From NCBI GenBank assembly GCA_036336855.1, contig JAYZFI010000052.1:73178-137177 (forward strand): a stretch of DNA of 64,000 nucleotides. The letters run 5' to 3'. A program made the position numbers and the translations under genes. The stretch is from Candidatus Latescibacterota bacterium (GTDB lineage Bacteria; Latescibacterota; UBA2968; UBA8231). How positions within the stretch are numbered: position 1 is the stretch's first letter; each line of letters opens with the position of its first letter. A model generated the notes under the pieces. It did not search any database, was not told where the DNA came from, and saw only the letters and a list, made by a program, of their open reading frames with translations. Positions 37,133 to 63,763 of the stretch are shown here, one piece after another.

Positions 37133-37327
37133 GGACAGACTCCAAGGCCGCAGCACAGATCGGCACAGTCCGAAAGGGAGGGATGCGATCGGCCCGGCGA
37201 GATAGGGGCATGATGGTCCGGACGGGGGGCAGGCCTGACGGCATCACCATGCCGACACCCCAAGACCTGGGGGGAGAGCGCAAGAAGGTTACAATATGTA
37301 GCCCTCAAGGTCAAGGTCTGCCGCGCC

Positions 37328-39041: not shown

Positions 39042-42725
<3,684 letters not shown>

Positions 42726-46109: not shown

Positions 46110-47339
46110 TTAAATCAACTCGCCATCCCCGGTGAAGGCCATGGCCACGGCCTCACCGGTCTGCGCGAGATCAGGATGTGACGCGAACTCCTGCTCCAGG
46201 GTGGCGGAGATCTGGATGTTCTCCAGCTTTAAAGTGTTGCGGATGCGGGCGACACGGGCTTGAGCTCCATCGTCAATGCGCAATACCTCAAACATGGCGG
46301 TGATAGCGTCGCGGTCGTTGTCCTTGACGATGGGAACGTAGGCGCGGTTGAGGAAGGTCGACGTAAAAGCGTTGGCGTAGGTGGCTTTGAAGTCGATAGC
46401 GTCGAGCAGCTGACGGGAGATGACGTCGGCAAGGCCGACGCCATTGGCGTTGCCGTGGGTGCAATCCGACAGCCGGCGTACGAAGATGCGCGATACCCCC
46501 GGCTCGTCGGGCTCCTTCAATCCGGGCAGCATCATGCGGCCGATGACATTGGTGTCCATGCCAGTGCCGCTTATCTCCTTGCCCATCTCGTCGACGATGA
46601 GCAGGTCGACACCCTGCACGAATAACCGCGGCATGGACAGGCGTGCCTCTGCGAGCAACTTGGGTTCTCGGGTGGAAAACTCCTCGGCTCGCAGCGCCGC
46701 CACCTTTGCCGTCTGATCATACGCGTTCTCGACGATGGCAATGCCGCCGAGAACGGGTAGCTGCGCTATGATCGCTTTGCCGAGCTCGGGGATGAGCCGG
46801 GACAGGCCCTGCGCGCCCTGGGTGTGGGCCATAGTTGCACCTTTGTGACAGCCCAGGCCGATCGTCATCATCTTCATCAACCCGCTCTCGTGCACACCGC
46901 GGAACGACGTGTGCGGCTTGATGCGGTTGACGATGATGAGCCCTCCCGATTCCTGCGCCAGGCGGTTCACCAGCACTGGGGTGTCGTCATCCAAGCGCCC
47001 GATCTCGACGACCTCCATGGTGGCCTCCACCGCACAGCCCATGGCTTTGGCGGAGATTCCGTAGGAGGCCAGCACCCCTTTCTGCCCCTCCGCTGTTGCG
47101 CCGCCGTGGCTGCCCATGGCGGGAATGATAAAGGGTTCGCCTCCGGACTCGCGCACGAAGTCCACGATGGTGCGGGTGATCTCCGGAATGTTGGCGATGC
47201 CGCGGCTGCCGCCGGTGACGGCGATTCTCTTTCCTGGCTCGATGCGCTCCTCGATTCCAGAGACGCTCAGCTGCGCGCGTGTCTCCTCAACCACGTCTTC
47301 CAGCATCTGGGCGTCGAAGCGCTGGCGGAAGGGGATCAT
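46110..47339 (-). CDS. LarA-family (DUF2088, nickel-pincer-cofactor-type) hydroxyacid racemase/epimerase homolog
   Basis: ..RIAVTGGSRGIANIPEITRTIVDF.., ..IIPAMGSHGGAT.., ..IKPHTSFRGVHESGLMKMMTIGLGCHKGATMAHT.. align by eye with the order of LarA catalytic His/His/Lys/His positions. Start trimmed to MIPFRQRF (ATG 47339). Confidence 0.5.
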   Translation of the reverse strand: MIPFRQRFDAQMLEDVVEETRAQLSVSGIEERIEPGKRIAVTGGSRGIANIPEITRTIVDFVRESGGEPFIIPAMGSHGGATAEGQKGVLASYGISAKAMGCAVEATMEVVEIGRLDDDTPVLVNRLAQESGGLIIVNRIKPHTSFRGVHESGLMKMMTIGLGCHKGATMAHTQGAQGLSRLIPELGKAIIAQLPVLGGIAIVENAYDQTAKVAALRAEEFSTREPKLLAEARLSMPRLFVQGVDLLIVDEMGKEISGTGMDTNVIGRMMLPGLKEPDEPGVSRIFVRRLSDCTHGNANGVGLADVISRQLLDAIDFKATYANAFTSTFLNRAYVPIVKDNDRDAITAMFEVLRIDDGAQARVARIRNTLKLENIQISATLEQEFASHPDLAQTGEAVAMAFTGDGELI

Positions 47340-47365
47340 CTCCGGGAAGGACTTCAACGGTAGTC

Positions 47366-47932
47366 TCAACCGACCAAAGCGGCGCGCAGGGCGTGCGAGC
47401 GTTCGCAAATAGGACGCTCGGGTCTCGGCACGGGCTCTTCGCCGCGCTCGAGGCGCCAGACGAAGACCGCCGGGCCCTCCGACTCGAAGTGCAAATCGAG
47501 CTTGGCTTCAAAGTCGGCGGGATCGTCGATGGTGTACACCGTCTTGAGACCGGCGGCGCGGGCCATGCCTCCGAAGTCGACGGTGCCCGCGCCGGGGACC
47601 GGCTGATTGCCGGTGACTTCGTAGGTGCCGTTCTCGGTGATGACCAACGTGTAGTTGGGGGCGGTGCTCTGGGTGAAGGTGACCAGGGATCCCAAGCACA
47701 TGAGAGTGCTGCCATCGCCGTTTAGGCAGATCACGCGGCGCTCCGGCTGCGCCAGAGCGATGCCGTATGCGAAATCGGCGGCGTGTCCCATAGCGCTGTC
47801 GACGGACGCGTAATCGAGGGCGGTATTGGATAGCTCCGCCCAAGGCATGGCGACGCTCATGGTGGTGACCACAACGTCGCCGTCGCTGCGGCGCGCGGCA
47901 AGCTTCTTCAGACAATCGTACTTGTTGAGCAT
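47366..47932 (-). CDS. ThDP-dependent decarboxylase beta subunit (ComE/sulfopyruvate- or phosphonopyruvate-decarboxylase-like)
   Basis: 188 aa after trimming to MLNKYDCLKKL. ThDP/Mg motif ..ICLNGDGSTLMCLGSLVTF...VITENGTYEVTG... Paired with an alpha-like subunit 10 nt upstream. Confidence 0.7.
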   Translation of the reverse strand: MLNKYDCLKKLAARRSDGDVVVTTMSVAMPWAELSNTALDYASVDSAMGHAADFAYGIALAQPERRVICLNGDGSTLMCLGSLVTFTQSTAPNYTLVITENGTYEVTGNQPVPGAGTVDFGGMARAAGLKTVYTIDDPADFEAKLDLHFESEGPAVFVWRLERGEEPVPRPERPICERSHALRAALVG

Positions 47933-47942
47933 TTGGAATCCC

Positions 47943-48437
47943 TTACTCCGTTTCCGTTGCCAGCAGCACCGCTGCCGGCAACGAGCGCTCGTTGGCAAGG
48001 GCAAAAGCCTCGTCGATCTGACCTCGGGTTTGGTTGTCGTCGTCGAGAACGGAATAGGGGATATCCCAAGCCTTGAGGGTGGGCTCGAAGAACGTGGCTG
48101 CCGTGTCGACTCGCGCGGTACCGGACTGCATGGTCTTGATGCCGCGGTAACCCATGAGCATCACCAATGGCAGGCCCATGTTGTAGGCGGTGCCGCGAAA
48201 GGCGTCGCCGGTCTCTAGGAAGCCGGTGTTCTGGATGATGACAACGGGTTTGTAGCCGCCCAGGTACATTCCGCTGGCCACGGCGAAGGCCTCGCCCTCG
48301 CGGGTGACACCGATGACATCGATGTTACTATCGGCCCAGAGCAGCTCGAACAGGGCTCGCGAGCCATTGTCGGGCAGGCCGACGACATGAGTGACGCCGT
48401 TGGCCTTGAGGGCGTCGACGATGTCAGAGGCCTTCAT
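47943..48437 (-). CDS. ThDP-dependent decarboxylase alpha subunit (ComD-like)
   Basis: 165 aa after trimming to MKASDIVDALKANGVTHVVGLPDNGS.. with ..TREGEAFAVASGMYLGGYKPVVIIQNTGF.. (pyrimidine-binding domain pattern). The ATG shares one base with the upstream stop (TGATG). Confidence 0.7.
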   Translation of the reverse strand: MKASDIVDALKANGVTHVVGLPDNGSRALFELLWADSNIDVIGVTREGEAFAVASGMYLGGYKPVVIIQNTGFLETGDAFRGTAYNMGLPLVMLMGYRGIKTMQSGTARVDTAATFFEPTLKAWDIPYSVLDDDNQTRGQIDEAFALANERSLPAAVLLATETE

Positions 48438-49627
48438 CAGGCCCAGATCGAACGGTTGGCCACGCCGTAGGCGAAGGCGGAATCCTGAATGCCGCCGACG
48501 TACTGAGCCGTACGCGATGCCGGTACCGAGCCTTCGTACCAAGCTTGGAAGGTGGGGTTGAACTTGGTTAGCGAGTCCCGATTGGCCTGACTGTCGTTGC
48601 CTGCGGCGATGTAGGCGTTGTTGAAAACGCCGTTCTCCTTCAACCCGGTACCGCCGGCTTCCTTCACGCGCGCGTCGATGCCGGAGAGGATCTCACCCGC
48701 GTCATTGCCGCCAACAGCGCCGATGTGGGCTTCGGTGATGCCGCCGTGGGTAAGGGTGACCCAGGTGCTGAAGCCGTTCTTGATCTCACCGGAGCGTTTT
48801 ATCTCGACGTCGCCAGCGACGACCCGCGGTTGCGGCTCGACAATGCTGTCGAGGTTAGGAATGCGCGAAACTGGGTAGATGAGGCCTGCGGGTCGGTCGT
48901 CGCCGAAGTAGCTCTCGAAGACTTTGCGCACGGTGTCGATGCGCTCCCAGGTCTTCGCGGGCTCGTCGTCGACGGCGACGAGGATCTCCATGAACGCGGT
49001 CTGCTTTTTGAAGTCGATACCCTCTTCATCCAGGCCCTTGGCGTACTGCTCCTCGAAGATGAACTCCGTCTCCTTGGCCACATCCGGGCCGAGGGTAGTG
49101 ATTATCTCATCACCCTTCTTGTGCAGCACGGAAGCGCCGCTGGGCTGGTGATCGACCCAGGAGCCGTAGTCGAGCTTGCCACCGCCGATCTCGACATCGC
49201 CGAGGGCAGCTTTGACCTGCACCTCGAACAGTGCCACGGGATCGGGAAAGCCCTCTTGATGAGTGAAGCGTGCCATGCGATTCGAGCGCAGCGCGCCCCC
49301 TGTGACAGCGTTGATCATGGCGCCGTACACAGAGTTGAAATCGTTCTTGAAACGGTCGCATTCGTCGCGATCCGCCGAGGGCGTCGTCCATAGCACATCG
49401 GTCTTGTACACATCGGACCAGTGCGCCTTGCCGAGCTCGAGACCGGCGGCCAGATTCTCGATGGTTCCGAACCACTCGGATCCGATGTTATTTGGGTACT
49501 GGGTCCCCACATTGCCGCTGGGCTCCACCAACCGCGTGACCTTGGAATCGTCGTCGATCTGAACTACTTCCGTGGTGCTGCAGAACACGGCGCCGGGCCG
49601 GTGGCGTAAGATGTGGACTTCAGCCAT
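48437..49627 (-). CDS. 396-aa protein that appears to contain three tandem RidA/YjgF-like repeats; function unknown
   Basis: Start trimmed to MAEVHILRH (ATG 49627). Three segments each end with a RidA-like pattern (F..Y..........R........L/I........E/V): ..FNSVYGAMIN..RSNRMARFTHQ..ALFEVQV.., ..VFESYFGDDRPAGLIYPVSRIP..IVEPQ.., ..FQAWYEGSVPASRTAQYVGGI... Recognised by eye only. Confidence 0.4.
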   Translation of the reverse strand: MAEVHILRHRPGAVFCSTTEVVQIDDDSKVTRLVEPSGNVGTQYPNNIGSEWFGTIENLAAGLELGKAHWSDVYKTDVLWTTPSADRDECDRFKNDFNSVYGAMINAVTGGALRSNRMARFTHQEGFPDPVALFEVQVKAALGDVEIGGGKLDYGSWVDHQPSGASVLHKKGDEIITTLGPDVAKETEFIFEEQYAKGLDEEGIDFKKQTAFMEILVAVDDEPAKTWERIDTVRKVFESYFGDDRPAGLIYPVSRIPNLDSIVEPQPRVVAGDVEIKRSGEIKNGFSTWVTLTHGGITEAHIGAVGGNDAGEILSGIDARVKEAGGTGLKENGVFNNAYIAAGNDSQANRDSLTKFNPTFQAWYEGSVPASRTAQYVGGIQDSAFAYGVANRSIWA

Positions 49628-49687
49628 GGTGCAGGCTACCTGCCTCTCTGTGTCATCGTTTCGAATGAAGATGGCCAGGTGCCGCAG

Positions 49688-49702
49688 GCACCTGCGGTGC
49701 CA
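49688..49702 (-). promoter_or_regulatory. candidate sigma-54 (-24/-12) promoter for the RidA-like/ComDE/LarA-like operon
   Basis: The minus strand reads CTGGCAC-CGCAG-GTGCC. This is a perfect TGGCAC -24 element, correct GG-N10-GC spacing, and -12 GTGC instead of TTGC. The GC lies 60 nt upstream of ATG 49627. Confidence 0.4.
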
Positions 49703-49776
49703 GTGATGGCACCTCATACCAACAGAAAATAGGCCCCCCTCGTACTCCCCTCAAACAGAAGATAGAGCGTGCAAGT

Positions 49777-50473: not shown

Positions 50474-51241
50474 TCAGAGACCCATGATTCGGTAGCCACC
50501 GTCAACGTAGAGAATTTCGCCGGTGATACCGCGGCTCATGGGGCTGCACAGAAAGACCGAGGCATCGGCGACCTCCTCGACATCGACGTTGCGCTTAAGG
50601 GCAGCGCGCTCGGCGTGAGTGCGCTGCATAGTGCTGAAGTCGCGAATACCGCGAGCGGCCAGGGTCTTGATGGGCCCGGCGGAGATTCCGTTGACGCGAA
50701 TCCCCGAGGGGCCGAGATCGCTGGCCAGGTAGCGGATGCCCGACTCGAGGGCTGCCTTAGCCACCCCCATGACATTGTAATTGGGAACGGCACGCTCACT
50801 ACCCAGGTAAGTGAGGGCGACGACACCTCCGCCGTTCTTCATCAGCGGCTCGGCGGCGCGCATTAGCACGTTCAACGAATAGGCGCTGATGTCGAGGGCG
50901 AGGTTGAAGCCGTCGCGTGAGGTGTCCGCAAAGCGGCCCTCCAGATCCTCGCGCTTGGCGAAGGCGATGGCGTGCACGAGCGCGTCGAGTCGCTCGTACT
51001 CGTCGCCCACGGTGCCGAAGGCGGCGGCAACGGAGTCGGTATCGGACACGTCGCACTGCACGAGAAGCGGCGGACGCTGCAGCTGATTGACGATCTTCTC
51101 GATGCTCGCCAGCTCGCGATCACCGAGATACCCCAGGGCCAGCTGCGAGCCCTCACGGTCTAGGGCGCGGGAGATGGCCCAGGCAATACTGCGATGGTTG
51201 GCGACGCCGGCGACAAAGCTGACTCGGTCCTGCATCAACAT
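50474..51241 (-). CDS. fabI: enoyl-[acyl-carrier-protein] reductase (NADH), FabI type
   Basis: ..FVAGVANHRSIAWAISRAL.., catalytic Tyr/Lys region ..NYNVMGVAKAALES.. and ..ISAGPIKTLAA... Start trimmed to MLMQDRV (ATG 51241) with GAGGAGA upstream. Confidence 0.92.
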   Translation of the reverse strand: MLMQDRVSFVAGVANHRSIAWAISRALDREGSQLALGYLGDRELASIEKIVNQLQRPPLLVQCDVSDTDSVAAAFGTVGDEYERLDALVHAIAFAKREDLEGRFADTSRDGFNLALDISAYSLNVLMRAAEPLMKNGGGVVALTYLGSERAVPNYNVMGVAKAALESGIRYLASDLGPSGIRVNGISAGPIKTLAARGIRDFSTMQRTHAERAALKRNVDVEEVADASVFLCSPMSRGITGEILYVDGGYRIMGL

Positions 51242-51264
51242 CTGTGATTCTCCTCTACATAGCC

Positions 51265-53091
51265 TCACTCGTCGTCCAACTGCAGGCCCAAGCGGTTGAG
51301 TCGGTAATCCACAACGCGGCTACGGGCGAAGGCCTTATGGCCTCGCAGTTGGTGCAGACATCGTCGCAGAGTCTGCTCTTCGCCCTCCTTGCTGACTAGT
51401 AGGGCGAAGCCGCCGCCGCCGGCGCCAGTAAGCATTCCGCCTTCGATGAGTTCCGCCACTTCGCCTGCAAAGAGCTGCTGGATATCAGAGGTCGTGGCCT
51501 CGGGGTCGAGGATGCAACGCAGCGCCCAATAGCGAGTCGCTAACTTGCCGAGAGCAGGATAGTCCTGGGCCGAGAGCGTGGCGACAATCTCGTCGTGCAG
51601 TTGCAGGGACTCTGAAACCGCCGGGTAGCGGAGCCGGTCTCGCGACAAATAGGCGTCAAGCACGGCGTTGAGTCCACGGGTGGCACCACGGGCGATGCCG
51701 GTGTCGAACAGCACGATGCGCTCGACGAAGGTGTTTTCGTCGACTTCGATGTGGCGCAGCTCTGGGGCGGGCAGTCCCTCGGTCGGCGGCGCGTAGAAGT
51801 CCTTCACGGCACTGTCGCCGCCGCGGGCGCCACGCGCGTCCTGCCAACCCGAGTTGAGGCCGATGGACTGCTCGAGAAGAACGCTCTGGTCGTAGAGCGA
51901 AGGATATTCTCCCTCAGAAGTGCCGGCCGGGTCACCGACGGCTCGGTAGAGGGCCTTGAGAAGCGCCGCGGCGAGGATGCTGCTGGTGCCGAGGCCAGAG
52001 CCCTGCAACACGGCACTGGCGGTTTTGATCTCCAGTCCGCCGCCGCCGGTGAAATCAACGACGTCCTGCACCACATCATGGGAATCGGGACGGATAATCC
52101 CGCTGTGCACGAGGGCCTGCTTGGCCATGCGCAAGGACTTGTCGCCCCCGCGGCGATAGGAGAAGAACAGCTCGCTCTGGGCGGCACGGTCGCCCTTGTC
52201 GTTAGCTTCGAAGTCGGCATGGAAGTCGGTGGATCGCGCCTTGAGAACGAGTCGCGCCTCCGGGAGCCGGTTCAGAGTGACCGTCACCGGCGTCACCGGC
52301 TGATCGGAGCCCTCCACCTGCAGATCGATGGCGGCGTTGACGGTCTTGCCGCCCTGCTCCTTGCTGCGGGCGTGGTTGTCGGAGGCGTTGGCACTGGAGA
52401 TTCCCAGGCGAAGTGGTGAGCGCACGGTGAACACGGTGTCCCAGTCCGCTTCTTCCATGGGTAGGCATCGAGTCTCGGCGACGTCACGAAGGCTGTGTCG
52501 CAAGTCGACGCGCTGCAGTTGGTTGATGCGGGCCCTGTAGGCTTGGGGTAGGGAGGCGAAGTCTTTCGCCTCCTTCAGCACTACAATGTGCCTACTATCG
52601 ACAGCGCAGGCGGGCAGGTTGCGGCGGCGCCAGATCTTGGGATCCTGAAGGCGCTCGTAGATGTCAGACATAATCAGGCAGACGCGCATGCCGGCGAGGC
52701 GGCGACGGCTTCCCTCGAGTCCGTTGAGAAAACGGTCAAGACGTTTGAGGCTATCGATTAGGGGTTTCACCGACTTCTCCGGCACCAGCCGCAGTGTGTC
52801 TACGTGACTGACGTCGAGAGCGTCTTGCACGAGCTCCACGAGTAGGCCGGGCAGCTCGCGCTCTACGGCGTCTCCGAACAGCTTTTCCCAATCCTCTGAT
52901 ATCACGGTTTCCAAGAGCCGATCTACGGCATCGCCGATGCAGCCCTCGCGCGCCAGATCCGCACCGAGAAGCAGAGCGCGAATTGCGGCTCGTCGCTTCT
53001 TGATATCGGATTGACCTTGGCGGGCTTCGCGGAGAATTTCAGCCAGCAGCTCTCCGGCTTCAGCCAGATAGGCAGCGGTCGCTTCCTGCAT
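51265..53091 (-). CDS. GHMP-family sugar kinase (fucokinase/heptose-kinase-like) fused to a ~230-aa N-terminal helical domain of unknown function
   Basis: ..RSPLRLGISSANASDN....GGKTVNAAIDL.. (GHMP motif I region), ..LQGSGLGTSSILAAALLKAL.. (motif II), ..GWQDARGARGG.., ..TGAGGGGFALLVSK.. (motif III). Start trimmed to MQEATAAYL (ATG 53091), 1 nt after the upstream stop. Confidence 0.7.
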   Translation of the reverse strand: MQEATAAYLAEAGELLAEILREARQGQSDIKKRRAAIRALLLGADLAREGCIGDAVDRLLETVISEDWEKLFGDAVERELPGLLVELVQDALDVSHVDTLRLVPEKSVKPLIDSLKRLDRFLNGLEGSRRRLAGMRVCLIMSDIYERLQDPKIWRRRNLPACAVDSRHIVVLKEAKDFASLPQAYRARINQLQRVDLRHSLRDVAETRCLPMEEADWDTVFTVRSPLRLGISSANASDNHARSKEQGGKTVNAAIDLQVEGSDQPVTPVTVTLNRLPEARLVLKARSTDFHADFEANDKGDRAAQSELFFSYRRGGDKSLRMAKQALVHSGIIRPDSHDVVQDVVDFTGGGGLEIKTASAVLQGSGLGTSSILAAALLKALYRAVGDPAGTSEGEYPSLYDQSVLLEQSIGLNSGWQDARGARGGDSAVKDFYAPPTEGLPAPELRHIEVDENTFVERIVLFDTGIARGATRGLNAVLDAYLSRDRLRYPAVSESLQLHDEIVATLSAQDYPALGKLATRYWALRCILDPEATTSDIQQLFAGEVAELIEGGMLTGAGGGGFALLVSKEGEEQTLRRCLHQLRGHKAFARSRVVDYRLNRLGLQLDDE

Positions 53092-53092
53092 C

Positions 53093-54613
53093 TCAGCTGA
53101 CCTCCACCGACGCGCCAGGAGGTACGGACGCGGTGTCCATGGGAGGTGGCTGCAAGGAGGCCAGTCGGTCCCACATACACAGAGAGACACCGCGTTCGCA
53201 GCCGTTGTCTTGGGAACGCAGAAACCGGGAGTGTGCCAGACCCGCGGGGCGGGGATTGGCCTCTACCACCACGGCGCGGAACTCGCTGGAGGCGCCGAGA
53301 TCGAGGACGAGGTCGACACCGACGAGCGCGACGTCTCCCAGACACTCGGCGGCCCTGGTCGCCGCTCGGACGATGCGCTGACGATCGTCGGGCAGCAGGG
53401 TGACCAGGGCGCCGTCGCGGCGGCGCACGAGATTTTCGAGCGCCTCTTCCAGGTCGATGATGGTGCCGCCCCGACCCCGTGAAGCCGGTGTGTCGGCGTC
53501 GGTACCTATCTGCGCGTAACCCGACTCAGCACAGCTCTGGCCGTCGATGGTGGTGGCCACGTGCAGCCGCAGAGCCAGGGTATGGTAGGTGCCGGAGCAC
53601 GGATCTCTGTAGACGACGCCGTCCCTTCGCTCCTCGACAACGGCGGCGCCCCACTCCCAACAAGCGGCGAGCCGATGCTTGAGGCTGGCGGTGTCGTTGC
53701 CGCGCAGCAGGAAGACACACTCGCCCTCGGTTCCGGTGTTGGGCTTGACCACCAACTCCTCGGTCTTACCGGCAAAGCGTTGCGCCAGCTTGTGCTGGCC
53801 GGGGGGCAGCAATCGCTGCCGCGGCACGTCGATCCCATGCTCACGCCAGCGCCGCACGGAGGAGGCCTTGTCATCAGCGACCAAGGAGGCGCTGTAGTTG
53901 TTGAGGAGCGGTATCGCGTCGAGCTGCTTGGCCCACAAGCGATGGCGCTCGGTCTGTTCGTCGCCCAAGGCGACGAACTGCGCCGAATGCAAGAGCAGCG
54001 GCGTTTCCAGGGCACACTCGAGGAAGCGATCTCGCAAGCCTTCGTAGTAGAGGACCCGTTGCGCTCTGCCGCCGTCCAGCCAGTCTCCATGGACGCTGAC
54101 GACGTTGAATTGGAAGGGACCGCCGCGCCGGCTGTCGCTGGTGGCCGCGTCTGCGATGAGGGGGTAGAGCTCGTGGGTGATGAGCGGCGCCGCGGCAAAA
54201 ACCACACCGTGATGGTGAAAGCCCTCCAGTTCGCGCTCTACTCGGTTCAGGGAGCGTGGCTCAGGGCAGATGCAGACCTCCGGCGCCATGGATGCGCTCA
54301 CTCGTGCCTCGATGGCGAGATGAATGATGCGCTCGCAATACAACGGATCTCGCCACAGCGCTGTCAGCACTGGAGCCATCGCGTCGGCGTGCAGCACCGG
54401 AGCCAGGAGTTCACGCGCCCGCTCGCAGACCTCGCGCAGCACCGACCGCGCGTGCGTGGTCAGGGTTGGCATGGGAACGTCTTCCTCAATGCGGGCAGCC
54501 ACCAGGTACTTTAGCAGCACGCTCGCCTCCTCCGCACGCAGAGGAGTGGTGGGACGCGACAGCGATAGGGCTTCGGCAGCTCGCCGAGCGACTTGGCGGC
54601 AGAGATCTCTCAA
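53093..54613 (-). CDS. ATP-grasp-fold protein (carboxylate-amine ligase type) with ~200-aa unassigned N-terminal region
   Basis: ..ELVVKPNTGTEGECVFLL.., ..AAVVEERRDG.., ..VALVGVDLVLD.......AVVVEANPRPAGL.. follow the ATP-grasp order. TTG 54613 overlaps the giant-gene stop (TTGA). An alternative GTG 54520 is preceded by GGAGGAGG. Confidence 0.6.
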   Translation of the reverse strand: MRDLCRQVARRAAEALSLSRPTTPLRAEEASVLLKYLVAARIEEDVPMPTLTTHARSVLREVCERARELLAPVLHADAMAPVLTALWRDPLYCERIIHLAIEARVSASMAPEVCICPEPRSLNRVERELEGFHHHGVVFAAAPLITHELYPLIADAATSDSRRGGPFQFNVVSVHGDWLDGGRAQRVLYYEGLRDRFLECALETPLLLHSAQFVALGDEQTERHRLWAKQLDAIPLLNNYSASLVADDKASSVRRWREHGIDVPRQRLLPPGQHKLAQRFAGKTEELVVKPNTGTEGECVFLLRGNDTASLKHRLAACWEWGAAVVEERRDGVVYRDPCSGTYHTLALRLHVATTIDGQSCAESGYAQIGTDADTPASRGRGGTIIDLEEALENLVRRRDGALVTLLPDDRQRIVRAATRAAECLGDVALVGVDLVLDLGASSEFRAVVVEANPRPAGLAHSRFLRSQDNGCERGVSLCMWDRLASLQPPPMDTASVPPGASVEVS

Positions 54614-57600
54614 GAGCTTGCCTCCAACGCCTGCAGGTACTGCTCCCCGGCGTAGCTGAGATCGCTAAGCACGCGGCGAGCCTGCAGGCCTACCTGCTGC
54701 CAGTCGAAGTTTCGGCCCTCAGCATCGGCAGTGGTTCGCTCGTGCACTTCCTCGCGCAATGTGACCCGATCCCAGAGGCCGACGCCGATGTTGGGCTCGA
54801 TGAGAACCGCCCGCCAACCTGAAACCGTGCCCTGCCGGCGTCGTTTGAGGTGCTGCAGGATGAACCGAGGCTGGCCATTCCCGTCGAGTTCGACCTCGAC
54901 GAGATCTCCGGCCTCGGCAAAGCGCGGCGTCACAAGAAAGTCGAGCATCATGTAGCGCGGTGTTCCGTAGGACACTCCGGCTAGATCCGAGCCGATCTCC
55001 CGTCCCGTCTCCTGCTGATACTCCTCGGCGCGCAGTTGCGCGTAATCCGACAGCGCTTCCATGACCGACGCAGAGGCCTGCTCCAGACCTGCCAACAGCT
55101 GATCGCGATGCTCGGGCCGGACGAAACGAGGCAGAAACTGCTCGAGACTGCCGCCCCGGCCGACGTTGGTGATAAGCTGCTTGCTATTGAGGGTGATGAA
55201 GTGGGAGAATTGCCAGCGGTGCTCCGGTGGTGCCAGGGGATCGGCAGTGGAGACGATGACCCGATGGGACCCGTATAGCGGCGAGTGCGGTCGACGCCGG
55301 CGCTCCACGGGAGATCCCCACTCCACGATCTGACGGTGCACGAAGTCGGCGAGGAACTGTTCCGTCGCCCAGAACTCTGGCGAGGCGACGATGACCTCCT
55401 GAATGGCGACGTTGTGCCGAAGAGAGATCTGGTAGACGAAGTCGACGGTACGCTCGAGCTCTTTCTCATCCACGGCCTCTTCGCCGGGACGGCGCAGCAC
55501 AAAGGCCGCCTGATTGCGTCCCCCGGACTCGGCGGCATCTTTGACCACGATGACGCGGTGCTGAGCGGCGAAACTGCGCAAGCCCGGGTAGTCCGTTTCC
55601 GGCAGGCCGTTCTCGATCCACGATCGCGCCGTGCGCTCTTCACCGGCGCGCTGGGTGAAAGCGGCGAGCCAGTCGATCTCCCGGGGCGTCTCCACGCCGG
55701 GGTGGCGCTCGAAGATGTCGGGATACTTGGCCTTGTCGTAGGTCGTCCAAGTGTGAAACAGGGACTGGACCGAATAGGGGAGGCCGCAATCCTCAAACTC
55801 CCCCTTGGTGTAGAGAGGATCGCCGTGGAAGGGATAGACTATGGAGGCGAGTACGGGCTCACGAAAGCGCACGGCGAGCCGCACTCCCTTGGGGTGGGCC
55901 GCCTCCGCCCGCGAGCGTGCGTTTGCCTCGCTCAGACCTCGGCAGCGAACTAGGGCAGTGACATACTCTTCGGCCGATACGTAGAGATGCCCACTGCTGA
56001 CCTCTGCGACGCGGCGCTCCCCTGCCTGGCGAAGATGTACCTGACGGGTGATAATGAGGTTGGCTCCCCTGCGCCCGGTGGTGAGCAACTCGGCATTCAG
56101 GCTCGGGCCCTCGCGCAGTGCCCGTGAATAGTGCGTTCGTCCCACCGGCAGAGCGATGATGTGGTTCACCCGGGCCGACGCAGCGATGATCTCGGGATCG
56201 AAGTCGGCGAAGACTTCGGGCAGAGGAAAGCCGTCGTTGCGGATGAAGGCGAGCTCGCGCAATTGTCCATAGGATCTCCACTTGAGCTCGGCAGGACCAT
56301 CGGCGTCCGCGCCGATGGCGTCGACTTGGGTACCGGACAGGAAGTTTCCCAGCAACTGATCCTGCTCTTCGACGCTGAGTTCCCCGACCTCGGTGAGCTG
56401 TGTGACCACGAGGCGCAGATAGCGATGGAGCCAGTCGTGCCGAGCGACGGCGAGCTCGTAGAGGGCTTCGCCGGAATACGACGAAAAACCGACGCCCCGG
56501 GAATAGACCCAAGGTCGGTACTCGTAGAAATGGTCGTTGATAGTCTCGGCGAAGAAGTCGGCCAGCGCTCGCCAGATTTCCTGCGTATCGGTGTTCTCGG
56601 GAGCGCGCGAGAAGGGCAGCGTGGACTCCACAGCCAGCAGGATATAGAACAGCTCCGCGCCCCGCGCCACCATATCGAGGTGGATCTGCGCAGTGCCCTC
56701 GTCGGCCGCCCGTTCGACTGCGGCCTGGGCGAGGCGGCCGAAGTCGCCCACGTCCTCGTAGCCTCCGGCGATGGCACGCCAGTTGTCCACGTCGACCTGC
56801 CGTCCCAGAAAGAGCGCGGTCAGGTGCTCGATGAAGAGTTGAGCCTCGTCGATCTGTTCCTCGACGTAGAGCTGCCTGACCAGGGTCAGCAGGGCGTTGC
56901 GCGTGTGGCTGATGAAAGCGCCGAACTGACTCTCCGTGACCAGCGAATTGCCATCACCGAGAGCGGCTTTGGCAGCGGTGAAGGCTTCATCGAAGGAGGT
57001 GGATTCAGAGGCTGCCGCCTCCACAGCACGATAGCGCTCGTTGAGCGCTCGCGCTCGTGAGATCCTCTCGGCAAGCTGGCGGCGTGCTTCTAGGGCGACG
57101 ACGGGGCGGTCTTCGGAAGCCTTATTAGAGCTCTCTATCCCCTTCTCCTCGCGAAATTCGTGAGGCGTTGCCACTACTGCGGGGCAGAGCAGATTCACCG
57201 GTGCATCGTCGGGCCAGTGCGAGCCTCCGCAAGCGAGGATGGCTTTGGCCATCCTCGCGCGGAAGCGCTCGATCTCTTCCGGATGGGCACCGGCCAAAAG
57301 GAAGCTGCCCCCCAAAGCGAGAAAGTCCTCGAAGGTCAACTGCTCTAGCGGCAGGCCCCCCGCGACGCGCAGAAGAGATTGGCTCAGAACCTCGTCGCGC
57401 TCGCGCAGTCTACCGAAGCGCCTGAGCTTGTCGACCTCGGCCAACTGGCGCTGCACCTCCTGTTCGCCGCGGACCTCAGCGACGATCTCGGCGTAGAGGC
57501 GTAAAGCCGATTCGTGGCCTTCCTCGGTCAGCGCGGTCGCCAGGCACTGGCAGCGCCGCCGCCGCCGCCTCATCTCTGCTCGCCACGCCTCGACGGTTTC

Positions 57601-60600
57601 CTCGCCGACGCCGATGCTGAGGTAGATCGGCTGACGATCGATGGCTTCGCCGGCGGCGAACCAGAGCTGCACGTCATAGCGGTTGAGGGCGCGACGACGT
57701 GCGCCCGAAGCTCCGTCGACGATGACGAGAGCGCTGTCAGGCCGGTTCTCGCACATGAGCTGGACGATGTGGGCGGGATTTTCTAACAGGCGCAGCAGCT
57801 CGCGGTGGGGAACGCCGGCGTCGAGAACGTCGGCGCCCTGCAGAGCCATCTCAAAGGAGCGTTCGGGACCGCGAGACTCCAGGGCGAGGACGTGGATGTT
57901 GCCTCCAAGACGATTCGCCAATCGTCGCCGGGTGTCGGCATCGATATCTGTAGCGGTGGCCCAGGCATCGAGTGTAGGGCCATAGGTTCCCATATTGGCG
58001 TCGATCTCAGCGTCGCTGAAGCCGGCACAGTTCAGGTCTAATCGCGCCTGTCGCGCAATCTTTTCGAGCCGGCTGTCGCTGGTATAGCCGAGCAGGTCCT
58101 GGGTCGACAATCCGGTGGAGGAGACCATGCGCAAGTCCGCCGCTGACTCGGGGGCGGGAAAGAGGTGGTGCAGGGCAAAGGCGTCATCGGGATCAGCGCC
58201 CACCAGTTCGGCGATGGTGCGGTCTCGCCCGCGTTGCTCCAGGACAGAAAAGCCCTCGGTCAGCAGGGACCCTATATCTTGACCGTCACGATCTAGGGCA
58301 TGGAACAGATGGTCTCCGGTGCCAGCGAGGATCTCGAACTTGCGCATCCCCACCGAGAACCGGCCGTCCTGAGTGTCGGGCTTATACTCCGCGGCGAGGA
58401 CGGCGACAAAGCCTCCCGGTGCCGCCCGCGGATGGCGGGTCCGCGCCTGCTGAACTCCTTGTCGCAGCAGCCAGGACTTGAAGAAGGGCATGAAGCGATT
58501 GACGTGCTCAGCGCCGGCTACCATGTGGTGGATCCCCCAACGTGCTACCAGCGCGGACGTCACGCGATCAGTCTGGCGCAGCTCCGGCTGTCCCAGGTTG
58601 TCGAGAACACGGGCGAGGCGAGTCGCCTGGAAGACGGGGATTCGGGATCTCGCCACGCCCCGATAGCGCAGCTCAAAGTGCTCGCGCAGAGTGGTCTCAT
58701 CAGCGAGGTATTCGGCGGCCCACTCCTCCCACTCAAAGTCGCTGGTGAACTCGGGCCGCCGGTCCAGCAGTCGCGCCGAGAGATTGGCGACGCGCGCGTG
58801 GTCTTCGCGAGGGATCCCTAGCTGGCGAAGCTTCTCGTGCCGGCCCAGGGTCAGCACGAACTCCAAGAAAAGGCCGTCCTTGGGAACACAGTAGCCGCCA
58901 TAGCCTTCTCCCGCGGGATGGATGATGCGATCCCGACGTCGACTCATCTGATCACCCATCTCCTCAATGTCGCCGTGTCGCGTGGCATTGACCATGAGCG
59001 CCAGCGAGTTGGAGAACGCGAAGTGGGAGGCCATGGAGGCATTCTCGCCGGTCTTGAGGACTTCCGGCTCCATGAGACTGTCGTAGCTGCGCACCGACTT
59101 GTTGATGAGCCCGTAGATCTCGCGACCGACACGGGCGGCGGCGCGATCCGCCCCTCCCACCCACTGCGACCAAGTCTCCACCGATTCCCGCTCGCGGTGA
59201 CCGAGGTCAACGCGACTTGGCGTGTAGAGCAGGTGATAGCGCTTGCCGGCGCCGGTGGCACGCAGGTTATGGAGGGGATCGAGAGTGAGGGCGTTGAGAC
59301 CGCGATCGGCAAGAACCTCCTTGCGAGCCGTGGTCTGGGTGAGACGCCCGTAACGGCGCAGATAGCTGCCGATGCGGTCTTCCACGTCGGCAGCGTGGAT
59401 CTCGCCCAGGCGCTCGAGAACTTCGCGGCGTGCCACGAAGCGAGTGAAGCTGGCCAGATCCTGGCGGTAGTCGGCGTCGCCCTCCACTACCGCGGTGAGA
59501 GCGGCGGCCTCATCGATACCACCGCTTTTGCGTAGGCGCTCGACCTCTTCCCAAAGAGTGGCGCCGTTGCGCTCCGCGACGCGATGCAGGGCACGGGTCA
59601 CCAGGCTCGCTGGTGGCTGGGCGAGCAGCTCTTCGACGGCCGGTGGATCCTGAACGGCGTCTGCCGATTGCGTGCCCACATCCTCTTCCGTGAGCTCGAT
59701 GAGAGCACCGAGCACGGCGACTTCGACCCGAACAGCGTGGTTGCGACCCAGCACCAGACTGACCGCTGCCTCTTCGGCAATGTCCTCGGTAGCGGCGGCT
59801 TCTTCCACCTCGACCCAGATGCCTAGCTCGTGGATGATCTGGCGGGCGAGCGCGCGCAGGCGCTGGCGGTAGTGCTGAATCCGCTCATCCACGGCCTCCT
59901 CGAGCCCCTGAGCCTGCACCACGCTGGCCAGCGACATAGACTCCTCCAGCCAGGTGCGCACATAGCCATCGGTCATGCCTGCAGACTGGGTGGTGAGTAC
60001 GTGCAGCACCGGCAGGGGACGGCGAGCCCGGAAGACCTCCTGGAAATTGCCGTCGAGTTGCGCCCCCTGGGTGGCCGGTTCGGGACGATCGTCGTCGCAA
60101 AGTGGCGAGAACAGGATGCTCAGTAGAGCGCGGAAGGGCTCTTCTTCCGCCTCGACCCGTTGCTGGATGGCGCCGACGTGGCGGCGATAGACCTGCTCGA
60201 CCCGCGAGCCAGTGGCTATCACCGCGGTCGCTTCGGCGTACTGACGGCACCAGTCAAGCGCCCGCACCTCGGCATCGAGGGCCAATGGATCCTCATCTGT
60301 GGCCGCCGACCACAGGAGCAGGCGCGCCGCCGACAAGAACTCGGATTCCAACACGGATCGCAGATTGCGCGCCCAGTGCTCGGCCATCTCCTCGCGGAAG
60401 GATTCCTCCATGCCGGCGATATCAATCACCGTGCGGGTAGACTCATGACCGTCGTCGTCGACGAGGACCTCCTCCTTGATGAACAGCGGGATCGCCTCGA
60501 TCCAGTGATCGGCATGCTGCAGCCAGCGATAGTCGGGTGAGGAGTAGACACGATTCCCGGCGAGCCGCAACAGCTTGCGCAGGTTCTCGGACTTGCCCAG

Positions 60601-61974
60601 ATAGGGCTCGTCGAACTCGTTGATCTTCACCAGAAGGTGAGAGCCAGTGGGGGAGGGGCGCTGGCTGATGACGACGTAGGCGGCCTGTCGCGACGGCGCG
60701 GACATCATCTCGGCGCGCACGCGCTCGACGAGCAGCAGGCGATCGTGAGCCGAACGTGCCGCCACTCCGTCTGCGACGGTGGGCAGGCTGGTGCTGGCGA
60801 GTTCGTCACCGTGGTCTTCAACCCGGGCCCGGGCCTGATGCAGTTGCCGCAATAGCTCGTCTCGCTGGGCATCGAGGACGGCCTCTTCGAAGCGCTCGCA
60901 CGCCCCCTCCAGCTGGATCAGTGGGATCTCCTCCGCAGAAGTGAGCAGAATTTCGAGTTCGAGGGCTTGACTCTGCAGAGCCGGTGATCCGGCGCTGGCT
61001 TTGCGGATTTCCACGGCCAGCACGGGCCAGCGAGGCAACGGAGAAACCAGCACGGAGTCGGCGAACAACGTCCCCTGATTGTGGAAGGCCCGGCTCATGC
61101 GGCCAAACACGAGCTGCTCGCCAGCCTCTCGCACTTCGGCCGTGAGGCATCGGATGTTATCGCCCTCTACCTCAGCGTCGTAGTCGCGGAGTACGTCGAA
61201 CAGCAGGAAGCGTTTGTCGTCGACTTCGATGTCACTGTCGAGAATCTCAATGGCACGGGCGCGGTCATACGGCAGGTCGAATCGATCCTGGCCGAGGAGC
61301 CAGGTCACATGGCGGTCGCGCTCCTGGGGCTCTGAGTCGGAGCTGCGCCGCAAGTACAGGGAGAACAGATTGCCTGAGTCGAGCAGCTGGCCTTCAAGTA
61401 GACCGTGTATGAGCACGCGATCCGTACGATCCAGAACGGCGTAGAGGTCGGTGACCCAGTGCAGCGCCGCCCGTTGGCTCTTGCCAGCGGCGACGGCGAG
61501 CTGATGAAACTGGGCAAGGGCGAGAATGAGCTCGAGGCCGCGCAGGCGCTCCGGCGCCAACGCCGTGGGGTCGTCGGTGATCTCTTCCAGCGAGAGACCG
61601 AGCTCGGGAGCCACATCGACGGAAACCCGAAACGCGCCGTCGGCATCGAGGCTGACCAAACGATCACCCCCGTGAACGAAGCGAACGGCGTGCTCACTAT
61701 CGTTCAGTTGTGCGCCGAGCTCAGTGACGCGCTCGGCGTCGGAGAAGCGGCGGGAGACCAGCTGCCAGGCGCGTGTGCACAGCTGTGCCGCCAGTTGACA
61801 ATCGGCGGAAGCGGTGTCCTCGAGGGCTATACTGGTGTCGGTGAAGGGGCGGGGGCCGAATCGCAAGATGCCTTCGGCGGCGACCTTGCCCGGCCCCCGG
61901 CGACCGCGCCAGATGCCGGCGCGCGGATTGTAACTGGCGACGAGACGGAGGGGAAAGTCGTGATTAACCAACAT
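54610..61974 (-). CDS. giant (2454 aa) multidomain protein: UDP-glucose/NDP-sugar dehydrogenase-like core plus C-terminal ATP-grasp-like domain, remainder unassigned
   Basis: Single uninterrupted ORF. UGDH-family motif order near nt 58300..59240: LLYTPSRVDLG, EVLKTGENASMASHFAFSNSLALMVN, GYGGYCVPKDG (Cys codon 58888..58890), VAVLAAEYKPDTQDGRFS. ATP-grasp-like C-terminus near nt 54610..55600: RVIVVKDAAESGGRNQAAFVL, AIQEVI, ITNVGRGGSLEQ, VLIEPNIGVG. Confidence 0.75.
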   Translation of the reverse strand: MLVNHDFPLRLVASYNPRAGIWRGRRGPGKVAAEGILRFGPRPFTDTSIALEDTASADCQLAAQLCTRAWQLVSRRFSDAERVTELGAQLNDSEHAVRFVHGGDRLVSLDADGAFRVSVDVAPELGLSLEEITDDPTALAPERLRGLELILALAQFHQLAVAAGKSQRAALHWVTDLYAVLDRTDRVLIHGLLEGQLLDSGNLFSLYLRRSSDSEPQERDRHVTWLLGQDRFDLPYDRARAIEILDSDIEVDDKRFLLFDVLRDYDAEVEGDNIRCLTAEVREAGEQLVFGRMSRAFHNQGTLFADSVLVSPLPRWPVLAVEIRKASAGSPALQSQALELEILLTSAEEIPLIQLEGACERFEEAVLDAQRDELLRQLHQARARVEDHGDELASTSLPTVADGVAARSAHDRLLLVERVRAEMMSAPSRQAAYVVISQRPSPTGSHLLVKINEFDEPYLGKSENLRKLLRLAGNRVYSSPDYRWLQHADHWIEAIPLFIKEEVLVDDDGHESTRTVIDIAGMEESFREEMAEHWARNLRSVLESEFLSAARLLLWSAATDEDPLALDAEVRALDWCRQYAEATAVIATGSRVEQVYRRHVGAIQQRVEAEEEPFRALLSILFSPLCDDDRPEPATQGAQLDGNFQEVFRARRPLPVLHVLTTQSAGMTDGYVRTWLEESMSLASVVQAQGLEEAVDERIQHYRQRLRALARQIIHELGIWVEVEEAAATEDIAEEAAVSLVLGRNHAVRVEVAVLGALIELTEEDVGTQSADAVQDPPAVEELLAQPPASLVTRALHRVAERNGATLWEEVERLRKSGGIDEAAALTAVVEGDADYRQDLASFTRFVARREVLERLGEIHAADVEDRIGSYLRRYGRLTQTTARKEVLADRGLNALTLDPLHNLRATGAGKRYHLLYTPSRVDLGHRERESVETWSQWVGGADRAAARVGREIYGLINKSVRSYDSLMEPEVLKTGENASMASHFAFSNSLALMVNATRHGDIEEMGDQMSRRRDRIIHPAGEGYGGYCVPKDGLFLEFVLTLGRHEKLRQLGIPREDHARVANLSARLLDRRPEFTSDFEWEEWAAEYLADETTLREHFELRYRGVARSRIPVFQATRLARVLDNLGQPELRQTDRVTSALVARWGIHHMVAGAEHVNRFMPFFKSWLLRQGVQQARTRHPRAAPGGFVAVLAAEYKPDTQDGRFSVGMRKFEILAGTGDHLFHALDRDGQDIGSLLTEGFSVLEQRGRDRTIAELVGADPDDAFALHHLFPAPESAADLRMVSSTGLSTQDLLGYTSDSRLEKIARQARLDLNCAGFSDAEIDANMGTYGPTLDAWATATDIDADTRRRLANRLGGNIHVLALESRGPERSFEMALQGADVLDAGVPHRELLRLLENPAHIVQLMCENRPDSALVIVDGASGARRRALNRYDVQLWFAAGEAIDRQPIYLSIGVGEETVEAWRAEMRRRRRRCQCLATALTEEGHESALRLYAEIVAEVRGEQEVQRQLAEVDKLRRFGRLRERDEVLSQSLLRVAGGLPLEQLTFEDFLALGGSFLLAGAHPEEIERFRARMAKAILACGGSHWPDDAPVNLLCPAVVATPHEFREEKGIESSNKASEDRPVVALEARRQLAERISRARALNERYRAVEAAASESTSFDEAFTAAKAALGDGNSLVTESQFGAFISHTRNALLTLVRQLYVEEQIDEAQLFIEHLTALFLGRQVDVDNWRAIAGGYEDVGDFGRLAQAAVERAADEGTAQIHLDMVARGAELFYILLAVESTLPFSRAPENTDTQEIWRALADFFAETINDHFYEYRPWVYSRGVGFSSYSGEALYELAVARHDWLHRYLRLVVTQLTEVGELSVEEQDQLLGNFLSGTQVDAIGADADGPAELKWRSYGQLRELAFIRNDGFPLPEVFADFDPEIIAASARVNHIIALPVGRTHYSRALREGPSLNAELLTTGRRGANLIITRQVHLRQAGERRVAEVSSGHLYVSAEEYVTALVRCRGLSEANARSRAEAAHPKGVRLAVRFREPVLASIVYPFHGDPLYTKGEFEDCGLPYSVQSLFHTWTTYDKAKYPDIFERHPGVETPREIDWLAAFTQRAGEERTARSWIENGLPETDYPGLRSFAAQHRVIVVKDAAESGGRNQAAFVLRRPGEEAVDEKELERTVDFVYQISLRHNVAIQEVIVASPEFWATEQFLADFVHRQIVEWGSPVERRRRPHSPLYGSHRVIVSTADPLAPPEHRWQFSHFITLNSKQLITNVGRGGSLEQFLPRFVRPEHRDQLLAGLEQASASVMEALSDYAQLRAEEYQQETGREIGSDLAGVSYGTPRYMMLDFLVTPRFAEAGDLVEVELDGNGQPRFILQHLKRRRQGTVSGWRAVLIEPNIGVGLWDRVTLREEVHERTTADAEGRNFDWQQVGLQARRVLSDLSYAGEQYLQALEASS

Positions 61975-62286: not shown

Positions 62287-62325
62287 AGAAAAATAAGCCC
62301 CCACCCCGGAATCGGAGAGGGGGCT
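62287..62325 (-). terminator. rho-independent terminator after the response-regulator gene
   Basis: The minus strand reads AGCCCCC-(16 nt)-GGGGGCT followed by TATTTTTCTC, about 26 nt downstream of the stop at 62351. Confidence 0.65.
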
Positions 62326-62350
62326 GAAGAGCACGGATGAGGATCCGGAA

Positions 62351-63763
<1,413 letters not shown>

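Follow-up and report, generated by a model that had tools for sequence, protein, structure and literature searches.

An unbroken open reading frame (ORF) of 2,454 codons in Candidatus Latescibacterota bacterium encodes a protein, here called the giant, that is best described as derived from the UDP-glucose/GDP-mannose dehydrogenase (UGDH) family. It lacks the Rossmann domain, the glutamate of the PE motif and a family-level score, and it carries the central domain and the catalytic cysteine set. The gene lies within a 64,000-nucleotide window of contig JAYZFI010000052.1 (assembly GCA_036336855.1, positions 73,178 to 137,177), and all positions below are those of the window. An earlier note, made from the sequence alone, had described the giant; it had missed that the giant is one subunit of a conserved three-gene module, together with a RimK-like ATP-grasp ligase (AG2) and a GHMP anomeric sugar kinase. 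We give about an even chance to the reading that this module constitutes an ATP-driven sugar-modifying system that is independent of nicotinamide adenine dinucleotide (NAD). The giant gene and its four modules are as follows.

54610..61974, minus strand: giant gene, 2,454 amino acids plus stop codon, ATG start, modules N, U, H and G
60010..61974, minus strand: N module, residues 1-655, with invariant blocks GRMSRAFHNQ (residues 291-300) and WIEAIPLFIKE (residues 491-501)
57535..60009, minus strand: U module, residues 656-1480, UGDH-derived, with three large insertions, ending in an arginine-rich helix (residues 1458-1479)
56230..57534, minus strand: H module, residues 1481-1915, all-helical and repeat- or solenoid-like, with an AlphaFold2 predicted local distance difference test score (pLDDT) mostly above 85
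54613..56229, minus strand: G module, residues 1916-2454, ATP-grasp fold, with K2145-DAAESGGR, QE2192-3, NVGRGG2270-5, D2345 and E2393-P-N2395

The giant belongs to a conserved protein family

As the source is a metagenome-assembled genome (MAG), and long spurious ORFs do arise in GC-rich DNA, we considered whether the ORF is an artefact of assembly or annotation, either a chimera or a spurious frame; this explanation is already ruled out. More than 110 homologues from independent assemblies, two cultured isolates among them, are collinear with the giant over their full length of 2,400-2,650 amino acids at 38-62% identity, which marks the ORF as a genuine gene. The whole protein is conserved, column identity averaging 53%, and the N-terminal sequence FPLRLV of the giant lines up with the N-terminus of its homologues. 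A scan of one genome per GTDB species found the giant in 121 species. The cultured carriers among them are the methanotrophs Methylovulum miyakonense HT12 and Methyloglobulus morosus KoM1, and MAG carriers are labelled Latescibacterota, Gemmatimonadota, Methylococcaceae, Armatimonadota, Omnitrophota, Planctomycetota, Handelsmanbacteria, Desulfovibrionaceae and Myxococcales. The giant and its homologues are deposited as “hypothetical”, and none has a functional name apart from automatic labels: one homologue is called a “Rossmann-fold NAD(P)-binding domain-containing protein”, and one member of a fusion cluster is called “galactokinase”, from its tail.

The U module retains the central domain and catalytic residues of UGDH

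Three features define the relationship of the U module to the UGDH family.

58768..59277, minus strand: UGDH-homologous core, residues 900-1069 (last NAD-domain strand, dimerization helix, Cys loop)
58888..58890, minus strand: codon of Cys1029, which sits where UGDH has its catalytic nucleophile and is unchanged in 79 of 79 aligned sequences
58321..58518, minus strand: start of the UGDH C-terminal (NDP-sugar-binding) domain, residues 1153-1218, containing AEYKPDTQDGRFS

The earlier note had recognized a UGDH-like core from four ordered motifs, all of which are present in the order given: LLYTPSRVDLG (residues 915-925), EVLKTGENA...FSNSLALMVN (residues 971-996), GYGGYCVPKDG (residues 1024-1034) and AEYKPDTQDGRFS (residues 1195-1207). 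The catalytic cysteine codon likewise lies exactly where the note had placed it. Matches to hidden Markov models (HMMs), to structures in the PDB and between profiles bear this core out as more than a chance resemblance. PF00984 (the central UDPG_MGDP_dh domain) matches residues 971-1037 with an E-value of 8.4e-6, at 26.3 bits against a gathering score of 25.4 bits, and when 20 members of the family were searched singly against Pfam it was found in all 20, with nothing else consistent. TIGR03026 matches residues 900-1040 to model positions 134-275 (E 2e-15); the giant scores 56.4 bits against a cut-off of 189.8 bits for this model and is thus below the family threshold. In the PDB, the core matches 4r16, 3g79, 3ojl and 4a7p, its nearest solved relatives being UDP-ManNAc, NDP-GalNAcA and UDP-Glc dehydrogenases. 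With hhalign, a profile of 20 members aligned residues 903-1069 to residues 133-294 of a bona fide UGDH with a probability of 97%.

Beyond the Cys loop, residues 1153-1218 weakly match residues 278-339 of PDB 4r16, at the start of the C-terminal domain, and hhalign aligns this start to UGDH residues 293-348 with an E-value of 1e-3. This placement implies that approximately 110 residues were inserted after the Cys loop. PF03720 (C-terminal UDP/GDP-binding) gives no match; the hallmark motif of the domain is invariant and weakly aligned, and the rest of the domain is interrupted. Secondary structure and motifs suggest that the C-terminal domain of U reaches approximately residue 1460. The arginine run pointed out in the earlier note (residues 1468-1477) is indeed present and is conserved as MRRxRRRA in a predicted helix.

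The substrate-side residues of the core are strongly conserved. None of 79 sequences departs from K974, N978, C1029, K1032 and D1033, which align to UGDH residues, and in the EYKPDTQDGRF motif of the NDP-sugar-binding domain E1196, Y1197, K1198, P1199, Q1202, D1203 and R1205 are invariant (28-79 sequences). The catalytic cysteine is retained even in distant fusion proteins, as GYCIPKD, GFCQPKD and GFCVPKE. The suggestion in the earlier note that the core may be catalytically degenerate therefore fails at the Cys site, given the invariance of these five residues; the part that appears to have been lost is the NAD domain.

Compared with the UGDH family, of which the UDP-ManNAc/NDP-HexNAc dehydrogenase branch is nearest (4r16, 3g79 and Cap5O, 3ojl; TIGR03026), the giant shares a homologous central dimerization domain and Cys loop and keeps the catalytic Lys, Asn, Cys and Asp, and the FKPxTxDxRxS-type motif of the C-terminal domain appears in it as EYKPDTQDGRFS. 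It differs in that the Rossmann NAD domain and its GxGxxG fingerprint are both missing, with about 210 residues of helices in their place, in that the PE-motif glutamate is a serine, and in that, besides the insertion after the Cys loop, it has further insertions in the C-terminal domain and embeds the core in a 2,454-residue chain.

The NAD-binding domain is apparently lost

Upstream of the core, two features occupy the place of the NAD-binding domain.

59935..60015, minus strand: vestigial Rossmann start, residues 654-680, consisting of strand VLHVL, loop TTQSAGMTDG and a helix in place of GxGxxG
59275..59907, minus strand: all-helical block, residues ~690-900, where Rossmann strands 2-5 should be, AlphaFold2 pLDDT ~85-95

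The earlier note had found no GxGxxG motif, and the alignment agrees with it, as the sole conserved G.G..[GA] pattern in the family is the GEGYGG of the Cys loop. At the expected fingerprint position there is instead the invariant H-V-L-T-T-Q-S-A-x-M, in which H658, L660, T661, T662, S664, A665 and M667 are invariant and G666 is replaced by R or N in 11 of 28 sequences (39%). No counterpart of UGDH residues 1-132 was found by hhalign. In an AlphaFold2 model of residues 420-1480 (pLDDT 78, predicted template-modelling score 0.75), a strand at 656-660 and a helix at 667-688 are followed, as far as residue 898, by some 210 helical residues (pLDDT 85-95), after which two short strands (904-906 and 911-918) lead into the UGDH-homologous part. 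The earlier proposal that the NAD domain is highly diverged or interrupted is thus borne out as to the missing fingerprint, and mere divergence does not describe the one strand, one helix and long helical block of the model. In the distant frameshifted member P0122 the helical block is about 100 residues shorter, which fits an insertion replacing Rossmann strands 2-5. From the sequence and the confidently predicted helical block, as opposed to a resolved active site, we infer that U probably lost its NAD-binding Rossmann domain.

Alternatively, U could still be an NAD-dependent sugar-nucleotide dehydrogenase with a split and highly diverged Rossmann fold, in which strands at ~490-517, 656-660 and 904-918 rebuild the sheet and the helical block is an insertion; the giant would then make a uronic acid that its own ATP-grasp domain amidates. 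All substrate-side catalytic residues are intact, AlphaFold2 places six strands over the three segments, as in a Rossmann sheet, the automatic Rossmann-fold label of one homologue points the same way, and dehydrogenase followed by amidoligase would be a tidy pathway. A collinear hhalign match of residues 439-521 to UGDH 108-173, with IPLFIKE on NPEFLRE, is very weak (E 0.26, probability 0.2%) and statistically void. Against these points, there is no glycine-rich loop, the glycine at position 666 being replaced in 39% of members; the first helix is not followed by a strand 2 bearing an acidic residue; PF03721 (UDPG_MGDP_dh_N) and other NAD_binding families of Pfam match none of the 20 members even at E-values up to 1; and the conserved PE-motif glutamate has been replaced by serine. 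We therefore consider a split Rossmann fold distinctly improbable.

The two most conserved stretches, residues 919-1031 (58882-59220) and 420-480 (60535-60717), are those that AlphaFold2 models worst; they may pack against residues 1-419, which were left out of the model, or against another subunit. TIM-barrel and PPDK matches of the U model in Foldseek were rejected as noise (E ~1, probability <0.2).

The N, H and G modules

The N, H and G modules gave nothing against Pfam, NCBIfam and the PDB, whether searched as a single sequence, as a profile or as 20 members singly, and the whole protein gives PF00984 alone. The remark in the earlier note that proteins of this size around a UGDH core were not recognized agrees with the library searches, in which PF00984 was the only Pfam family in each of the 20 members and no family covers the architecture. 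When 1.84 billion representatives were searched exhaustively by HMMER with a profile of the N module (residues 150-660), the 102 proteins retrieved all contained this module, and N thus gave no match beyond the giant family. The H module gave weak Foldseek matches to helical repeats only. Two assignments for N were considered and rejected. A phospho-histidine swivel domain, as in phosphoenolpyruvate (PEP)-utilizing enzymes, was proposed from SPTGSH (residues 441-446); its histidine is missing in distant members, and there is no PEP-utilizers match in Pfam. A second, degenerate UGDH copy was not borne out by hhalign of N against U and of N against UGDH (E 0.07 or worse, probability <1%).

For the G module, AlphaFold2 of residues 1481-2454 (pLDDT 86) gives a helical region up to residue 1915 followed by an alpha/beta region. 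Foldseek matched the latter to D-Ala-D-Ala ligase (Ddl; 6dgi, E 1.2e-5), and then to VanA (3se7), PurD (2ip4), DcsG, PurT, LysX and RimK, with a probability of 1.00 and E-values from 1.2e-5 to 1e-3 for Ddl, VanA, PurD and DcsG. The C-terminal ATP-grasp domain anticipated in the earlier note is therefore there as a fold, at about 540 residues (1916-2454) rather than the roughly 330 suggested. K2145, S2150, G2151, R2153, Q2192, D2345, E2393, N2395 and NVGRGG are invariant; their roles were assigned by pattern rather than by superposition, and the motifs are collinear with those of AG2. Against curated ATP-grasp sequence models the best match was ATPgrasp_YheCD at E 0.24, and there was no PDB sequence match. 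Fold and motifs thus place G in the ATP-grasp superfamily, although in none of its curated subfamilies. As in the carboxylate-amine ligases (D-Ala-D-Ala ligase/VanA, PurD, LysX, RimK), the Lys comes first, followed in the usual sequence by the Gly-rich loop, the QE hinge and the D...ExN Mg-binding motifs, so that the nucleotide- and Mg-binding set looks complete. Unlike these ligases, G lies behind a helical scaffold and a UGDH-derived module, and it is set apart by the lack of a sequence-level match, by its length and by large insertions.

Partner genes of the giant

Two genes on the same strand directly follow the giant.

53093..54613, minus strand: AG2, partner ATP-grasp ligase, ~506 amino acids, whose TTG start overlaps the TGA stop of the giant (TTGA)
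51265..53091, minus strand: partner GHMP sugar kinase, fucokinase-like, likely start ATG at 53091, 1 nucleotide after the AG2 stop

AG2 passes the cut-off of Pfam ATP-grasp_3 (E 1e-9, 39.1 bits against 23.2) and falls below that of the RimK family TIGR00768 (E 2.8e-7, 30.2 bits against 143.4), and is therefore a member of the ATP-grasp superfamily, not RimK proper. G and AG2 were considered as close paralogues and this was rejected, as BLASTP was not significant; hhalign of the two is collinear over the motifs but has a probability of 0.9%, which is suggestive only. The kinase passes PF00288 (GHMP_kinases_N; 29.6 bits against 22.3) and matches Fkp (NF009948, E 1e-36), PDB 9iip and 5yys (1e-14) and the heptose-7-phosphate kinase HddA (1e-8). 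Its alignment to the kinase domain of Fkp, a bifunctional L-fucokinase/GDP-fucose pyrophosphorylase (5yys, 9iip), extends over ~400 residues, and both are anomeric kinases of the sugar-salvage type; unlike Fkp, the partner has no pyrophosphorylase domain, and its first ~230 residues are without assignment.

Gene context was evaluated at 85 loci, 74 of which have enough flanking sequence to show the downstream gene. AG2 lies directly downstream of the giant in 52 of these 74 and a GHMP kinase is present in 33, which, with the overlapping or abutting start and stop codons and the fusions described below, argues for functional coupling. The order giant-AG2-GHMP recurs in Methylovulum, Armatimonadota and metagenome contigs from JGI/ENA. 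The type of kinase varies by lineage, being fucokinase-like in the Latescibacterota type, short (338 amino acids) in methanotrophs and galactokinase-like in a distant member.

The identity of AG2 also bears on an alternative in which a protein, peptide or polymer is the substrate of the ATP-grasp domains, as with RimK, LysX, cyanophycin synthetase or tubulin-tyrosine ligase; amino acids would be added to a C-terminus, or a poly-amino-acid chain built, with the sugar modules as primer or regulator. The best families for AG2 are RimK (TIGR00768), YheC/D and sugar-transfer-associated ATP-grasp, LysX and RimK are among the structural neighbors of G, and both G and AG2 contain an (N/S)xGRGG motif, which we take to be typical of the RimK/LysX clade. 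However, the module has no conserved small carrier or precursor gene, the C-terminus of the giant itself is not conserved, and the linked kinases are sugar kinases. This alternative is in our view unlikely.

The partners are fused to the giant in other lineages

The exhaustive profile search also retrieved larger relatives of 3,100-7,944 amino acids. HMMs of the four modules and AG2 showed N-U-H-G-AG2 to lie on one chain, in this order, in at least 17 representatives, and in all four fusions checked by Pfam (P0136, P0137, P0147 and P0219) a GHMP kinase domain follows AG2. That other lineages carry the products of the three operon genes as a single polypeptide speaks strongly for their acting together. 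The fusions derive from the dictyostelids Polysphondylium violaceum and Synstelium polycarpum, the archamoeba Pelomyxa schiedti, a Lokiarchaeota/Promethearchaeota MAG and Omnitrophota; the non-bacterial fusions of giant, AG2 and GHMP kinase are P0153, P0149, P0156 and P0172. P0153 contains Asn/Ser/Thr low-complexity runs in the dictyostelid style, which argues against bacterial contamination, and a search from P0156 for named eukaryotic orthologues gave only unnamed relatives. Additional fused domains are phosphofructokinase and an HD domain in P0128 and hexokinase in P0196. Other domains proposed by eye had no Pfam support and were rejected, namely a UDP-sugar pyrophosphorylase at the N-terminus of P0137, HAD phosphatases in the tails of P0136 and P0209 and a phosphoglucose isomerase (PGI) in P0169.

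The accessory domains identified are all sugar kinases (GHMP, hexokinase, PFK, PfkB). As the ATP-grasp fold includes inositol-phosphate kinases, the ATP-grasp domains could themselves be kinases like ITPK1 or PPIP5K and, alongside the kinases of GHMP, hexokinase and PFK type, yield a sugar that carries several phosphates. The top Foldseek matches of G are, however, carboxylate-amine ligases and not ITPK1 or PPIP5K, and the RimK-type GRGG motif points to ligases, so that this reading appears very improbable.

Two further observations concern the fusions. In one clade only (P0133, P0209, P0137, P0138 and P0148) the motif x-G-[L/M/Q]-E-E (AGLEE, AGMEE) occurs 3-9 times per protein, often near module boundaries, and could be a linker signature or processing site. 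In addition, most bacterial fusions (P0128, P0133, P0137, P0138, P0147, P0165, P0169, P0186, P0196, P0203 and P0209) start with a hydrophobic segment resembling a signal peptide or anchor (KD19 at least 1.5) that the window protein lacks, and the large fusion versions may be membrane-tethered.

A proposed NAD-independent sugar-modifying system

Under the proposed system of giant, AG2 and GHMP kinase, U would no longer oxidize its ligand; this ligand, a sugar phosphate, nucleotide sugar or uronate, would instead be held in place, possibly by a covalent bond to Cys1029, with the vestigial strand-TTQSAGM-helix now acting as a phosphate-binding site. The GHMP kinase would supply sugar 1-phosphate, and each of the two ATP-grasp domains would convert a carboxylate to an acyl phosphate and then join it to an amine. 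The outcome would be an amino-acid- or amine-decorated sugar, or a short polymer, although our confidence in any particular product is much less than in the general picture. A recurrent link to sugars speaks for this picture: the GHMP partners resemble fucokinase, HddA or galactokinase, certain fusions carry hexokinase or phosphofructokinase domains, and where the partner genes are missing, the neighbors include a PfkB sugar kinase, an HAD hydrolase and an enzyme of the DHDPS family. A more specific version, in which Cys1029 takes an acyl group from an ATP-grasp acyl phosphate or a sugar-uronate as a thioester (transient in UGDH) and passes it to an amine, making the protein an NAD-independent assembly line for a sugar-amino-acid metabolite or polymer with N and H as a new oligomeric architecture, would amount to a hitherto unrecognized type of enzyme machinery common to bacteria, Asgard archaea and Amoebozoa; it is speculative and rather unlikely.

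By analogy, the closest biochemical precedent for the proposed chemistry would be Cj1438C of Campylobacter jejuni, an ATP-grasp amidoligase that amidates the C6 carboxylate of glucuronate in the capsule (PMC11800379). Cj1438 joins a GT2 glycosyltransferase to this TupA-like amidoligase (PMC11800379) and, like the giant, thus has a sugar-handling domain and an ATP-grasp domain in one polypeptide; the carboxylate that it amidates is the position addressed by a UGDH-type site. The two proteins differ in that the sugar-handling domain of Cj1438 is a glycosyltransferase and not a UGDH derivative, in that its ATP-grasp domain is of another subfamily, and in size (776 against 2,454 amino acids). Furthermore, Cj1438 sits in a capsule locus, whereas the module of the giant has no glycosyltransferase or export gene.

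Several observations weigh against the proposed system. Where the PE motif of UGDH has its glutamate, the family has an invariant S920 (aligned as TPSRV), and the original hydrolytic chemistry must therefore have been altered. The AlphaFold2 pLDDT is below 50 in residues 420-480 and in residues 919-1031, the most conserved part of U, and Foldseek on the U model gave weak UGDH matches (E ~1) with the conserved core poorly modelled, so that the model is uninformative on the three-dimensional state of the active site. The module has no nucleotidyltransferase as a constant companion, and an NDP-sugar ligand is therefore no more than a candidate. Approximately 20 loci have neither partner gene nearby. 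The size of the giant and its conserved N and H modules are not accounted for by the proposed model, ATP-grasp enzymes also include kinases and protein- or peptide-modifying ligases, sugar-acid ligation being one of several options, and no substrate, product or phenotype is on record for any family member.

In a further alternative, the giant would serve chiefly as a scaffold or sensor without catalysis of its own: as a pseudo-dehydrogenase, it would bind a nucleotide sugar and organize or regulate its partner ligase and kinase. More than 1,000 residues of helical scaffold (H and the insertion in U), the loss of the cofactor domain and the many different extra domains fused in relatives are in keeping with such a role, and, as UGDHs are oligomeric, a part in assembly is plausible. 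The catalytic Cys, Lys, Asn and Asp and the Mg- and ATP-binding residues of the ATP-grasp domain are nevertheless invariant across bacteria, archaea and eukaryotes, which is hard to explain without catalysis, and we regard such a scaffold or sensor as distinctly unlikely.

Genomic surroundings

Two further genes flank the three-gene module in the window.

50474..51268, minus strand: FabI-type enoyl-ACP reductase of the short-chain dehydrogenase/reductase (SDR) family, last gene of the run, a lineage-restricted neighbor
62351..63763, minus strand: NtrC-type sigma-54 activator (receiver, AAA+ and HTH_8), directly upstream of the giant, a candidate regulator

FabI is found near the giant in 21 loci, each of Latescibacterota, Gemmatimonadota or Planctomycetota type. 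A homologue of the activator lies upstream in 25 loci, and in one locus (L004) a PAS histidine kinase adjoins it. The 376-nucleotide spacer between activator and giant contains no TGGC-N8-TGC (-24/-12) sigma-54 promoter, so that regulation by the NtrC-type activator is suggested by synteny. Right behind the activator gene, at 62290-62345 (minus strand), a GC-rich hairpin followed by a T-run (gccccctctccgattccggggtgggggcttattttt) resembles an intrinsic terminator, and the giant gene therefore probably has its own promoter in the spacer. The sigma-54 gene itself, rpoN, is located in the same region as the activator at 43611-45176 (plus strand), ~9 kb from the giant gene.

A second conserved gene run (46110-49717, minus strand), directly past the module, encodes a 426-residue protein without assignment, a split thiamine pyrophosphate (TPP) enzyme (N half 47943-48542, C half 47366-48004) and a nickel-pincer (LarA-type) isomerase (“group 22”, E 1e-153). 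A convergent CofC-like nucleotidyltransferase (DUF2064/TIGR04282; 49777-50466, plus strand) lies between this run and FabI. The entire block is syntenic with the giant in ~20 loci of the Latescibacterota type, and it may or may not belong to the pathway of the giant. The rest of the window is ordinary chromosome (for instance 33560-37156 and 4188-6983 on the minus strand, 39051-40874 and 23817-25340 on the plus strand), with genes for SMC, pyruvate dehydrogenase E1, CTP synthase, ATP synthase alpha/beta, Lpt proteins and a TonB-dependent receptor, and the giant gene is therefore on no obvious mobile element. A defence system was considered and rejected, as PADLOC gave nothing meaningful.

Two other loci have unusual arrangements. 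On the Armatimonadota contig JBTSJD010000046.1 (L003:406-17296), two full-length giant paralogues (P0078 and P0076) stand in tandem, with a gene for a secretion-type ATPase (MshEN/T2SSE) between them and an AG2-like gene after them; no GHMP kinase is nearby. At L006:8833-15406 a distant, low-GC giant is spread over six consecutive ORFs, probably through long-read frameshifts, with a 516-residue AG2-like gene and a galactokinase-type GHMP kinase downstream.

Significance

The folds involved are known, and no paper on this combination of domains was found. What is not described in the literature searched is the architecture, the loss of a cofactor domain with the active site kept, the three-component module and its spread over three domains of life. 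A protein of ~2,450 residues that is 40-60% identical along its length must do something specific, and no member of this family has a name, a paper or a Pfam family over ~90% of its length. The giant is found in methanotrophs, Latescibacterota, Armatimonadota, Omnitrophota and Planctomycetota, and it is fused with its partners in a Lokiarchaeote, dictyostelids and an archamoeba. If the reading presented here is true, the family would clearly exemplify a dehydrogenase that lost its cofactor domain and kept its active site, and would bear on the repurposing of enzymes. Which three activities cooperate can be predicted from the fusions with unusual strength and in a form ready for assay, and, with Methylovulum miyakonense HT12 and Methyloglobulus morosus KoM1 as cultured hosts and dictyostelids as further carriers, the question is testable in culture.

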